The position numbers were made by a program, and so were the translations under genes. A stretch of DNA of 64,000 bases from assembly GCF_056712565.1 (NCBI RefSeq), contig NZ_CM160072.1, one strand, 5' to 3'. Below are positions 27,851 through 31,539 of this stretch, piece after piece. Under the pieces are notes generated by a model. It had not been told where the DNA came from, searched no databases, and worked only from the letters and a program-made list of their open reading frames with translations. How positions within the stretch are numbered: the first letter of the stretch is position 1; every line of letters begins with the position of its first letter.

Positions 27851-27961
27851 GCTGAAACGGATGGCCTGATGTGACGCTGTCTAATCAGGTCAATTGAACT
27901 CTTAAGGTTCACTTAATCTCTGACGCGCATACTCTCCTCCAGGTTAACGGAGGAGAGTGCA

Positions 27962-28051
27962 ATGAAAAACCGTGTTTATGAAAGTTTAACTACCGTGTTC
28001 AGCGTGCTGGTGGTCAGCAGCTTTCTTTATATCTGGTTTGCCACGTACTGA
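27962..28051 (+). CDS. pmrR: Small membrane protein PmrR (29 aa)
   Basis: Short ORF MKNRVYESLTTVFSVLVVSSFLYIWFATY preceded by ggagga RBS; single hydrophobic helix; overlaps basS 3' end antisense. Below the 60-aa cutoff of the ORF track. Confidence 0.6.
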   Translation: MKNRVYESLTTVFSVLVVSSFLYIWFATY

Positions 28052-29118
28052 TCTTTTTTCAGCCGTATCCAGGCCCGCGTGCCGGAAGTCTCTTGCCGGT
28101 TTTGCAGGAAAAACTGCCCGTGATGCAACTGTGTAATGCGGCTGACAATACTTAACCCCAGACCAATCCCGCCATAACGGCTGTCCATTCGTACAAACGC
28201 TTTACTCAACTCCCCGCATTTACTCTCATCAATACCCGGCCCTTCATCTTCAACGGCCATGACCGCTCCGCCATCTTCTTGCAGCTTAATCATAATGTTG
28301 CTGCCTTGTGGGCTATAACGATGGGCGTTTTCTACCAGGTTTCGCAATAACATCCGCAGCAGGGTTGCATCACCCTGAACGGTGATGTCGGCGGCGCTCT
28401 CTGGCAATAGCAGGGTTTGCTGGCGCTGGTCGAGCATGGTACTAAGTTCGTCATACGAGGGGAGAATGACATCTTCCAGCAGTTTTACATGTTGATAATT
28501 ACCGGAAGAAAATGACTGTCCGGCACGCGCCAGTTGCAGCAGCTGGGAGACGCTCTCCATCATCTGATCAAGTCGTGCCACTAACGGTGCTACATCAATG
28601 TGATGCGTTTTCGCCAGCAGTTCCAGATGCAAACGCACCCCCGCCAGTGGTGTTCGCAGTTCGTGCGCGACGTCAGCGGTAAACAACCTTTCGTTATCCA
28701 GCGTGCTGGTCAGGCGACTGACCAGATCGTTTAACGCCGAAACCACCGCATCGATTTCGAGGGTGGCGCTATGAATGGCAATGGGCGTTAAGTTATCGGC
28801 GGTGCGCGCTTCCAGCTCTTTTTGCAGCTCCGCCAGCGGTCGGGTGATGCGGCGTACCGCCTGATAGCAGATAAATAGCGTCAGGCTAACCATAAAGACG
28901 CCGGGGACAATCAGGCTGGCGACCGCCTCGCGGATCTCACGCATGATGTGGCGATCGTTGTTGCGATTGTCGCGTAGCGCCTGCTCAAACAGCTGAATCT
29001 GCTCGGTACTTTCATGCCACAGCCAGAAGACGCTGATCAGCTCAAACACCAACAAAATGGCCCCGATGGTCAATATCAGCCGTTGGCGCAGCGATATTGG
29101 TCGGCGCAGAAAACGCAT
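28027..29118 (-). CDS. basS: Sensor histidine kinase BasS (PmrB)
   Basis: ORF 28027..29127; start at MRFLRRPISLRQRL; HAMP, H-box HELRTPL, ATPase domain. Confidence 0.92.
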   Translation of the reverse strand: MRFLRRPISLRQRLILTIGAILLVFELISVFWLWHESTEQIQLFEQALRDNRNNDRHIMREIREAVASLIVPGVFMVSLTLFICYQAVRRITRPLAELQKELEARTADNLTPIAIHSATLEIDAVVSALNDLVSRLTSTLDNERLFTADVAHELRTPLAGVRLHLELLAKTHHIDVAPLVARLDQMMESVSQLLQLARAGQSFSSGNYQHVKLLEDVILPSYDELSTMLDQRQQTLLLPESAADITVQGDATLLRMLLRNLVENAHRYSPQGSNIMIKLQEDGGAVMAVEDEGPGIDESKCGELSKAFVRMDSRYGGIGLGLSIVSRITQLHHGQFFLQNRQETSGTRAWIRLKKDQYVANQI

Positions 29119-29127
29119 CAGATTCAA

Positions 29128-31436: not shown

Positions 31437-31539
31437 CACGGTGTTTCCATCGAACAAAGTGCGCATATGCTCGCAAAGCAAAATTAAGCCAACCTTAAGT
31501 TCTTAAGGTTGGCTTTTATGTTTGCTTGATTAAGGGGAA

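Follow-up and report, generated by a model that had tools for sequence, protein, structure and literature searches.

pmrR, a known PmrA-activated gene convergent to basS, and a conserved leader hairpin that may insulate it from read-through transcription

What is the short open reading frame (ORF) that shares its last bases with the convergent sensor kinase gene basS (pmrB), and does this sharing matter for basS expression? In the 64,000-nt stretch of DNA analyzed here (the window), the plus strand carries proP and, after it, the ORF in question; convergent to this ORF, on the minus strand, come basS/pmrB, basR, and eptA. A sequence-only reading of the window had described a 29-codon ORF with a single hydrophobic helix and a good ribosome binding site, overlapping the last ca. 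25 nt of basS, had matched it to PmrR of the PmrA regulon, and had suggested that the overlap may allow transcriptional interference with basS. Coordinates and sequence agree with the description (the overlap is exactly 25 nt), and the match to PmrR is borne out by the protein family profile, the RefSeq annotation, and a PmrA box. The features on which the following analysis relies are these:

27901 to 27917, plus strand: PmrA (BasR) box CTTAAG-GTTCA-CTTAAT (CTTAAGGTTCACTTAAT) of the pmrR promoter, a perfect match to the consensus, 44 nt upstream of the ATG
27928 to 27933, plus strand: predicted -10 hexamer CATACT, placed by conservation and by its distance from the box
27940 to 27942, plus strand: predicted PmrA-dependent transcription start, placed by promoter geometry, 7 to 9 nt past the -10 hexamer
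27949 to 27955, plus strand: pmrR Shine-Dalgarno sequence GGAGGAG, read directly, 6 to 8 nt before the ATG
27962 to 28051, plus strand: pmrR coding sequence, ATG start and TGA stop, 29 aa, from the ORF list and the annotation
28027 to 28051: coding overlap of pmrR and basS, 25 nt including both stop codons (PmrR ending in YIWFATY* on the plus strand, BasS ending in YVANQI* on the minus strand)
28027 to 29127, minus strand: basS/pmrB, the convergent sensor kinase gene, last of eptA-basRS (annotation)
31483 to 31499, minus strand: second PmrA box (CTTAAGGTTGGCTTAAT), a consensus match upstream of eptA, in the promoter of the convergent eptA-basRS
27893 to 28058, plus strand: match to Rfam RF02052, "Enterobacterial sRNA STnc630" (182 bits against a gathering score of 55, model positions 1 to 166 of 166)

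A short reading frame between proP and basS

The translation of 27962 to 28051 on the plus strand is MKNRVYESLTTVFSVLVVSSFLYIWFATY, of which residues 9 to 29 (LTTVFSVLVVSSFLYIWFATY) form one single hydrophobic stretch. ORFs of 20 aa or more that fall at least partly within the 6-kb stretch around pmrR number 88, so that a 29-codon ORF is uninformative by its size, and the case was built on other evidence. A 270-nt query around the ORF was present in 5,408 of the 5,426 complete Escherichia coli genomes, with the RefSeq annotation “pmrR: LpxT activity modulator PmrR”; the earlier reading had called it easily missed, which is outdated, because present-day pipelines annotate pmrR. The RefSeq product class (WP_000797657.1) is identical to the window peptide, and the MG1655 counterpart is b4703 (4332116 to 4332205). 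MG1655 coordinates were transferred to the window by a gap-free alignment with an offset of 4,304,154, and the few substitutions between the two strains all fall outside pmrR. Against NCBIfam NF033224 (PmrR), the peptide scored 74.2 bits (cutoff, 30), with residues 1 to 29 on profile positions 1 to 29 of 29, and it has the features of that family, that is, a length of ca. 29 to 30 aa, one hydrophobic helix, and a location convergent to the 3′ end of pmrB. Pfam holds no family for this peptide, the best match reaching 11.9 bits against a cutoff of 25.

Relatives were gathered through PmrB loci, using one genome per species. The scan returned 80 loci, in all of which pmrA lies directly upstream, and 54 of them, from ca. 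15 genera, carry a hydrophobic ORF of 28 to 33 aa convergent to the end of pmrB. Together with the window, this makes 55 loci with an intact ORF of 28 to 33 aa at the same place. The genera include Escherichia, Citrobacter, Yokenella, Raoultella, Klebsiella, Pseudocitrobacter, Phytobacter, Kosakonia, Trabulsiella, Enterobacter, Kluyvera, Pluralibacter, and Superficieibacter-like organisms. Among the same 80 loci, the ORF was missing from eight of Enterobacteriaceae and from every locus of Pectobacterium, Rahnella, Serratia, Rouxiella, and related genera. Pairwise differences among 43 distinct 93-nt ORFs were distributed over codon positions 1, 2, and 3 as 33, 22, and 45%, and F21 and W25 were invariant among the PmrR peptides. 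Outside Escherichia, the peptides mostly scored 0 to 18 bits against NF033224; most of them are therefore divergent and lie under the naming cutoff.

As a check, the sequence-only reading had proposed a PmrA box upstream of 27962, and one is found at 27901 to 27917. Matches to YTTAAK-N5-YTTAAK number two in the 64-kb window, against 0.09 expected, and all of the 55 pmrR loci (the window and the 54 fetched) have a box with at most one mismatch, 40 to 46 nt ahead of the start codon. The stretch from the box to the Shine-Dalgarno sequence has as its most conserved element, in 52 sequences, a -10-like hexamer with the consensus NANACT, in which the final T is invariant and A2, A4, and C5 are each conserved in at least 90%; a hexamer of the form xAxxxT lies 10 ± 1 nt past the PmrA box in all 52 leaders. 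A spacing of 10 nt between box and -10 element fits the geometry of OmpR/PhoB-type activators, where the activator replaces the -35 element. With this geometry, a promoter using the box at 27901 to 27917 should have no possible start upstream of ca. 27940, the position at which the 5′ arm of the hairpin described below ends. The literature that we searched, whose coverage of primary pmrR studies is incomplete, yielded no published start-site data for pmrR.

Profile match, annotation, conservation, codon-position signature, and PmrA box together rule out a chance ORF. A longer form of 42 aa, starting from an upstream ATG, was rejected as it is present in two Escherichia loci only. The ORF is pmrR, a gene already known, annotated, and experimentally studied in E. 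coli. At the gene level, there is no difference from the known PmrR of Salmonella enterica and E. coli (NF033224): it is the same gene, in the same position (proP, pmrR, and convergent basS), with the same PmrA box and 25-bp overlap.

Published work on E. coli covers its transcription, translation, and function, so that the finding that would have spoken against the gene, a lack of transcription or translation under induction, is not what has been reported. Deletion of the PmrA box of pmrR abolished PmrR function and, in a pmrA-constitutive strain, made cells polymyxin sensitive and deoxycholate resistant, the polymyxin sensitivity being undone by deletion of lpxT or by pmrR in trans (PMC8129183). 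Ribo-RET detected translation initiation at pmrR, and PmrR-6xHis was recovered in the membrane fraction (PMC11429745). In the same study, a pmrR deletion caused a growth defect in low Mg2+ that was rescued by wild-type pmrR but not by an ATG-to-TAA variant, overexpression of PmrR was harmful, and part of the phenotypes, growth included, were lpxT independent, which means that LpxT may not be the sole target of PmrR. A transcriptional reporter of pmrR was without activity in low Mg2+ (preprint PMC11429745), and Fe(III) induces pmrR along with eptA, arn, and basR (PMC13405929). Binding and inhibition of LpxT by PmrR are credited to Kato 2012 in later papers (PMC8004244, PMC8129183, and PMC11429745). 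No evidence of any weight stands against the identity and function of pmrR.

The explanation that we hold with high confidence is therefore that of a known PmrA-activated gene encoding an LpxT-inhibiting peptide, whose 25-nt overlap with basS is most likely incidental. The functional steps come from the literature, and the sequence anatomy was checked in this analysis. BasS/PmrB would sense Fe3+ or mild acid, and phosphorylated BasR/PmrA would bind the direct-repeat box at 27901 to 27917, which, once occupied, would stand in for a -35 element and activate the promoter with the -10 hexamer CATACT (27928 to 27933). The short mRNA would then be translated from its strong Shine-Dalgarno sequence into a 29-residue single-pass inner membrane peptide that would bind and inhibit the lipid A 1-phosphotransferase LpxT, so that position 1 would stay open to the phosphoethanolamine added by EptA; the expected outcome is an increase in polymyxin resistance and a decrease in deoxycholate resistance. 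In this, PmrR is like MgrB and MgtS, which also have ca. 30 to 50 aa and one transmembrane helix, are induced by two-component systems, and modulate an inner membrane protein (PMC11429745); unlike them in sequence, it acts on LpxT, whereas MgrB acts on PhoQ and MgtS on MgtA/PitA.

Rfam files the same region as the gene of a small RNA. If the locus were the noncoding RNA STnc630, the ORF would be incidental, and the full-length match at the pmrR coordinates speaks for that. However, the RF02052 model spans the PmrA box, which is promoter DNA, the leader hairpin, and the whole pmrR ORF, so that what is filed as an sRNA gene is a protein-coding mRNA with its promoter, the hairpin over the Shine-Dalgarno sequence being part of the consensus structure. 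The ORF is, moreover, intact in the 55 loci with the codon-position bias given above, F21 and W25 do not vary, and initiation, a tagged membrane protein, and the loss of complementation upon changing the start codon to a stop have all been published (PMC11429745). We consider a purely noncoding role highly improbable. STnc630 is thus an earlier name under which the pmrR locus was taken for an “sRNA”; the region is coding and should be filed as mRNA, and the pmrR transcript may be a dual-function RNA.

As stated, then, the finding of pmrR holds nothing new, since gene, PmrA box, function, and 25-bp overlap are already annotated and published.

The overlap with basS

The 25-bp overlap of pmrR and pmrB has been described before (PMC8004244 and PMC8129183). 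Its length varies across genera from -8 to +57 nt: Escherichia has 25 nt, while other genera have 4, 0, 22, 57, 42, 29, or 11 nt or a gap of 1 to 8 nt. On the basS side, tblastn matches of PmrB between genera end at residue 354 to 358 of 366, and the overlapped end of BasS (YVANQI*) therefore belongs to a nonconserved tail. Judging from these comparisons of sequences, the conserved trait is the tight tail-to-tail packing and not the overlap itself, and the overlap is most likely incidental, a product of close packing against the variable C-terminal tail of BasS. At the level of RNA, one more feature has to be considered:

28146 to 28158, plus strand: published RNA 3′ terminus, with its peak at MG1655 4332305, equivalent to 28151 of the window (PMC10687069, Supplementary Data 2 and 4)

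This terminus is 100 nt beyond the stop codon of pmrR, which puts it 125 nt into basS, and the 107 nt preceding it fold with -34.4 kcal/mol (z = -2.3). Given these plus-strand 3′ ends within basS, the pmrR and basS transcripts appear to overlap, and the pair could in principle work as a convergent excludon, in which pmrR antisense RNA would lower BasS through polymerase collision or RNase III and provide a PmrA-dependent negative feedback. Along similar lines, the coding sequences share 25 nt, the tail-to-tail arrangement is kept in 54 loci of other species, both promoters have PmrA boxes, and pmrR-basS figures among the convergent pairs listed by ExcludonFinder from RNA-seq coverage (PMC12288877). 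Nevertheless, a regulatory overlap is hard to reconcile with the variation of its length among genera and with its location on a tail of BasS that is not conserved. Like convergent excludons, these are convergent genes with apparently overlapping transcripts, but the literature does not point to the mutually exclusive expression of such pairs: both units are PmrA boxed, and pmrR, eptA, and basR are induced together by Fe(III) (PMC13405929), which speaks against mutual exclusion of the two units. Induction of arnT was the same (50-fold) without the PmrA box of pmrR, although in a strain that was pmrA constitutive (PMC8129183), which makes this test insensitive to the level of BasS, and in the constructs of Xu et al. 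2021, considered below, those including the pmrR promoter gave a higher, not lower, pmrB signal. That pmrR interferes with basS is an idea which the literature already records, in the form of a list entry; it is possible but not favored by the comparative data, and we regard it, as well as a PmrA-dependent feedback through antisense RNA, as improbable.

A hairpin over the Shine-Dalgarno sequence

The only point at this locus that is possibly new is a hairpin in the pmrR leader.

27931 to 27958, plus strand: leader hairpin with a perfect 10-bp stem and an 8-nt loop, the arms being ACTCTCCTCC (27931 to 27940) and GGAGGAGAGT (27949 to 27958)
27963 to 27964, plus strand: published RNA 3′ terminus, MG1655 4332117/8, 5 to 6 nt past the hairpin (PMC10687069, Supplementary Data 2)

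The hairpin has a folding energy of -19.9 kcal/mol (z = -3.8). Its 3′ arm contains the pmrR Shine-Dalgarno sequence, which is buried in the stem, and on the 5′ side, the stem shares bases with both the -10 hexamer and the predicted start. When RNA of the window was folded from 27941, the Shine-Dalgarno sequence was unpaired, while in RNA folded from 27893, it was closed.

The structure is shared by most of the relatives. Across 52 leaders, 81% of the helix cells form standard pairs, against 36 to 49% when the partner is slid, and there are compensatory double changes at several stem pairs, one of which is AU in 17 leaders, CG in 15, GC in 6, and GU in 6. Stem covariation amounts to 0.25, compared with 0.136 in shuffles, and none of the 500 shuffles reached 0.25; these shuffle controls are lenient and overstate the significance, since the leader sequences are related. 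RNAalifold on a MAFFT alignment recovered 6 of 10 to 13 pairs, a low figure that results from variable loop lengths, and counts on the named structure were used in its place. The z score is below -2 in 47 of the 52 leaders, the tetramer of the Shine-Dalgarno sequence is fully paired in 41 of 52 and paired in 41 to 46 of 52, and the -10-like hexamer overlaps the 5′ arm in every one of them. Genes upstream of pmrR are codirectional in four unrelated contexts (proP, uvrB, a transporter-like protein, and one other protein). The sole locus with a divergent upstream gene (L057) has the sole leader without any indication of a stable hairpin (z = +0.36), a contrast that amounts to one case; a further four leaders fold weakly, with z scores between -2 and 0.

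A tract of U residues after the stem is lacking (none of the 52 leaders has more than three T among the 8 nt that follow; the tail in the window is GCAATGAA), and the hairpin is therefore not a canonical intrinsic terminator. Along the same lines, a terminator scan of the window did not call it. A terminator-like hairpin inside pmrR (28005 to 28019) was set aside, since it folds no better than shuffles and no published 3′ end lies there.

As an inverted repeat, the sequence could fold in RNA of either strand. The folding energy of the whole segment does not tell the strands apart (means of -15.2 and -14.6 kcal/mol; P = 0.71). In the inner stem, 34 cells hold wobble pairs that form only in plus-strand RNA, versus 8 that form only in minus-strand RNA.

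Which RNA the hairpin may act in

An mRNA initiated at the PmrA-dependent promoter should be without the 5′ arm, because its start would not lie upstream of ca. 27940, and the hairpin would therefore act in some other RNA. Our preferred reading, tentative and with somewhat less than an even chance of being right, is that the hairpin is an insulator, at which RNA reading through from the upstream gene ends or past which it stays untranslated, so that PmrA-initiated RNA alone is translated. In transcripts coming from proP (in the window) or from uvrB (in most other genera), the 5′ arm, which runs from the last bases of the -10 element up to the start site and hence lies upstream of the predicted PmrA-dependent start, would pair with the Shine-Dalgarno sequence and either close the ribosome binding site or end the RNA at the hairpin. 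Transcripts from the PmrA promoter, devoid of the 5′ arm, would be translated. The existence of read-through transcripts is supported by the published 3′ ends downstream of the hairpin. As for the start site on which this scheme depends, its position comes from promoter geometry.

Fold-back inhibition of this kind has been described for transposase translation in IS10/Tn10 and IS200 (Davis, Simons & Kleckner 1985, pmid 2416461; Beuzon et al. 1999, PMC148624). In these elements, a stretch that precedes the element's own start base pairs with the ribosome binding site, so that only read-through from outside promoters folds and is silent. The pmrR leader would share this geometry, its 5′ arm overlapping the -10 element and the predicted start. 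Unlike IS10 and IS200, however, pmrR is a chromosomal regulon member and not a mobile element; the likeness, which depends on a start deduced from the promoter, is one of mechanism and not of membership. By this analogy, a chromosomal regulon gene would be under fold-back control in the style of IS10, conserved over ca. 15 genera of Enterobacteriaceae, a suggestion for which we see nearly, though not quite, as much in favor as against.

Two other explanations have to be weighed against insulation. The hairpin might be a mere terminator or 3′ stabilizer of proP or uvrB that overlaps the Shine-Dalgarno sequence by coincidence. K-12 plus-strand 3′ ends 5 to 6 nt past the stem fit this well, as does the statement of the SEnd-seq authors that the gene upstream of pmrR terminates within pmrR (PMC10687069). 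It is at odds, however, with the lack of a U tract in all 52 leaders and the silence of the terminator scan, as well as with the fact that the hairpin accompanies pmrR across four unrelated upstream genes and is apparently absent, at a cursory look, where uvrB adjoins pmrB without pmrR in between. Termination overlaps with the insulator model and does not exclude it; as a full account of the hairpin, with the Shine-Dalgarno overlap left to chance, it seems to us unlikely. The alternative on the opposite strand is that the hairpin serves as a 3′-end structure of the eptA-basRS mRNA and sets the level of basS mRNA, following Xu et al. 2021, whose truncation endpoints were placed on the window by their primer sequences:

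27940, endpoint of construct DS86: without the -10 element and without the 5′ arm; colistin MIC of 0.5
27923, endpoint of construct DS103: with the -10 element and the whole hairpin, without the PmrA box; colistin MIC of 4
27901, endpoint of construct DS126: reaching the first base of the PmrA box; colistin MIC of 16

Truncation at 27940, by which half of the hairpin is gone, led to a loss of colistin resistance and a decrease in the pmrB signal of ca. 315-fold, while DS103 and DS126 brought both back, and the inverted repeat folds with equal overall energies on either strand. Against this, DS103 and DS126 each carry the hairpin in full and yet differ four-fold in MIC, the part that distinguishes them being the PmrA box. 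The wobble pairs of the inner stem (34 versus 8) favor the plus strand, the Shine-Dalgarno sequence of pmrR invariably makes up the 3′ arm, and the locus L057 has a convergent pmrB without the hairpin. Furthermore, the 3′ ends at the foot of the hairpin are on the plus strand, with none listed on the minus strand, although basS expression was low in those libraries (PMC10687069). The qRT-PCR method of Xu et al., as described, gives no sign of strand specificity, and their data cannot tell an effect of the pmrB 3′ untranslated region (UTR) from effects of the pmrR promoter, of PmrR, or of the hairpin. Action on the minus strand appears to us a rather weak candidate, slightly behind plain termination. 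The inverted repeat would nevertheless fold in the basS 3′ UTR as well, to which Xu et al. credit the effects that they observed, and this is to be kept in mind when the hairpin is read as an insulator.

Two aspects of the locus reach beyond the window. Box-preceded, syntenic PmrR-like peptides in Klebsiella, Raoultella, Kosakonia, Kluyvera, and other genera fall under the NCBIfam cutoff and may lack annotation in genomes for which polymyxin resistance has clinical relevance. The insulating hairpin, if confirmed, would correct both the Rfam “sRNA” reading of STnc630 and the “pmrB 3′-UTR” reading of colistin resistance at this locus, and it would keep a small, dose-sensitive membrane peptide, encoded between two transcription units, strictly under the control of one regulator.

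Truncation endpoints and the Rfam label at the pmrR promoter

Xu et al. (2021) credited to the pmrB 3'-UTR the effect of a set of truncation constructs downstream of pmrB. When placed on the window, the endpoints of these constructs fell at the positions listed here.

Endpoints of the truncation constructs of Xu et al. (2021) and their colistin MICs
27901: DS126, first base of the PmrA box; colistin MIC of 16
27923: DS103, just upstream of the predicted -10 hexamer; colistin MIC of 4
27940: DS86, last base of the 5' arm of the leader hairpin; colistin MIC of 0.5

What was ascribed to the pmrB 3'-UTR may in fact come from the pmrR promoter or hairpin. The pmrR locus (27893-28058, plus strand) corresponds to Rfam RF02052, "sRNA STnc630," the model of which takes in the whole pmrR coding sequence along with its PmrA box and leader hairpin, and this family looks like an mRNA plus its promoter under the wrong label.

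Sequences flanking pmrR and the PmrA box of eptA

An imperfect REP-like palindrome (TGGCCTGATGTGAC / GTCTAATCAGGTCA, 27862-27892) lies 12 nt past the proP stop; two of its positions differ in MG1655, whose copy is nearer to the canonical REP. At the other end, a T6 run (28053-28058) immediately 3' of the pmrR stop, which encodes Lys-Lys of BasS on the opposite strand, is also where the Rfam model ends. MG1655 carries TTTCTT in its place, a change that is synonymous in BasS. Among complete E. coli genomes, the match of a 270-nt query around pmrR in NZ_CP074033.1 (E. coli PI7) extended only to base 206 (window position 28056), with pmrR as the sole gene annotated under it; in this strain, basS appears to be interrupted or deleted right after pmrR.

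A second PmrA box, CTTAAGGTTGGCTTAAT, was found upstream of eptA (31483-31499, minus strand), and there was no third in the window. Inspection of the eptA leader by eye revealed no hairpin comparable to that of pmrR.

PmrR-like peptides in other genera

Among the PmrB-containing loci of other species, two pmrR-like ORFs had the coordinates given here.

L022 (Klebsiella pneumoniae), 3640-3702, minus strand: PmrR-like peptide
L057 (Pantoea sp. A4), 3589-3654, minus strand: pmrR-like ORF

Of all the pmrR-like loci, only the Pantoea one, with an atypical peptide of 33 aa, lacks a co-directional gene upstream, and its leader is the only one folding no better than shuffled sequences (z = +0.36); four other leaders fold only weakly (z between -2 and 0). 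No pmrR-like ORF was present in the Enterobacteriaceae pmrAB loci L009, L016, L018, L032, L035, L047, L048, and L081, and no fewer than five of these loci (L009, L016, L018, L035, and L081) have the end of uvrB directly adjoining that of pmrB, 17 to 38 nt apart. The record titled "Chryseobacterium sp. 18061" (CACSKA010000002.1) contains an Enterobacteriaceae pmrAB-pmrR locus (L045) nearly identical to that of "Citrobacter sp. 18056" (L040), and the assembly is probably mislabelled or contaminated.

Syntenic PmrR-like peptides (loci L010 to L062) from Klebsiella, Raoultella, Kosakonia, Kluyvera, Phytobacter, Pseudocitrobacter, and others, each preceded by a PmrA box, gave scores of 0 to 18 bits with the NCBIfam PmrR model. 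The sole residues invariant across the PmrR-like peptides are F21 and W25. Since these scores fall under the model cutoff of 30, the peptides of Klebsiella, Raoultella, and the other genera may be left unannotated.
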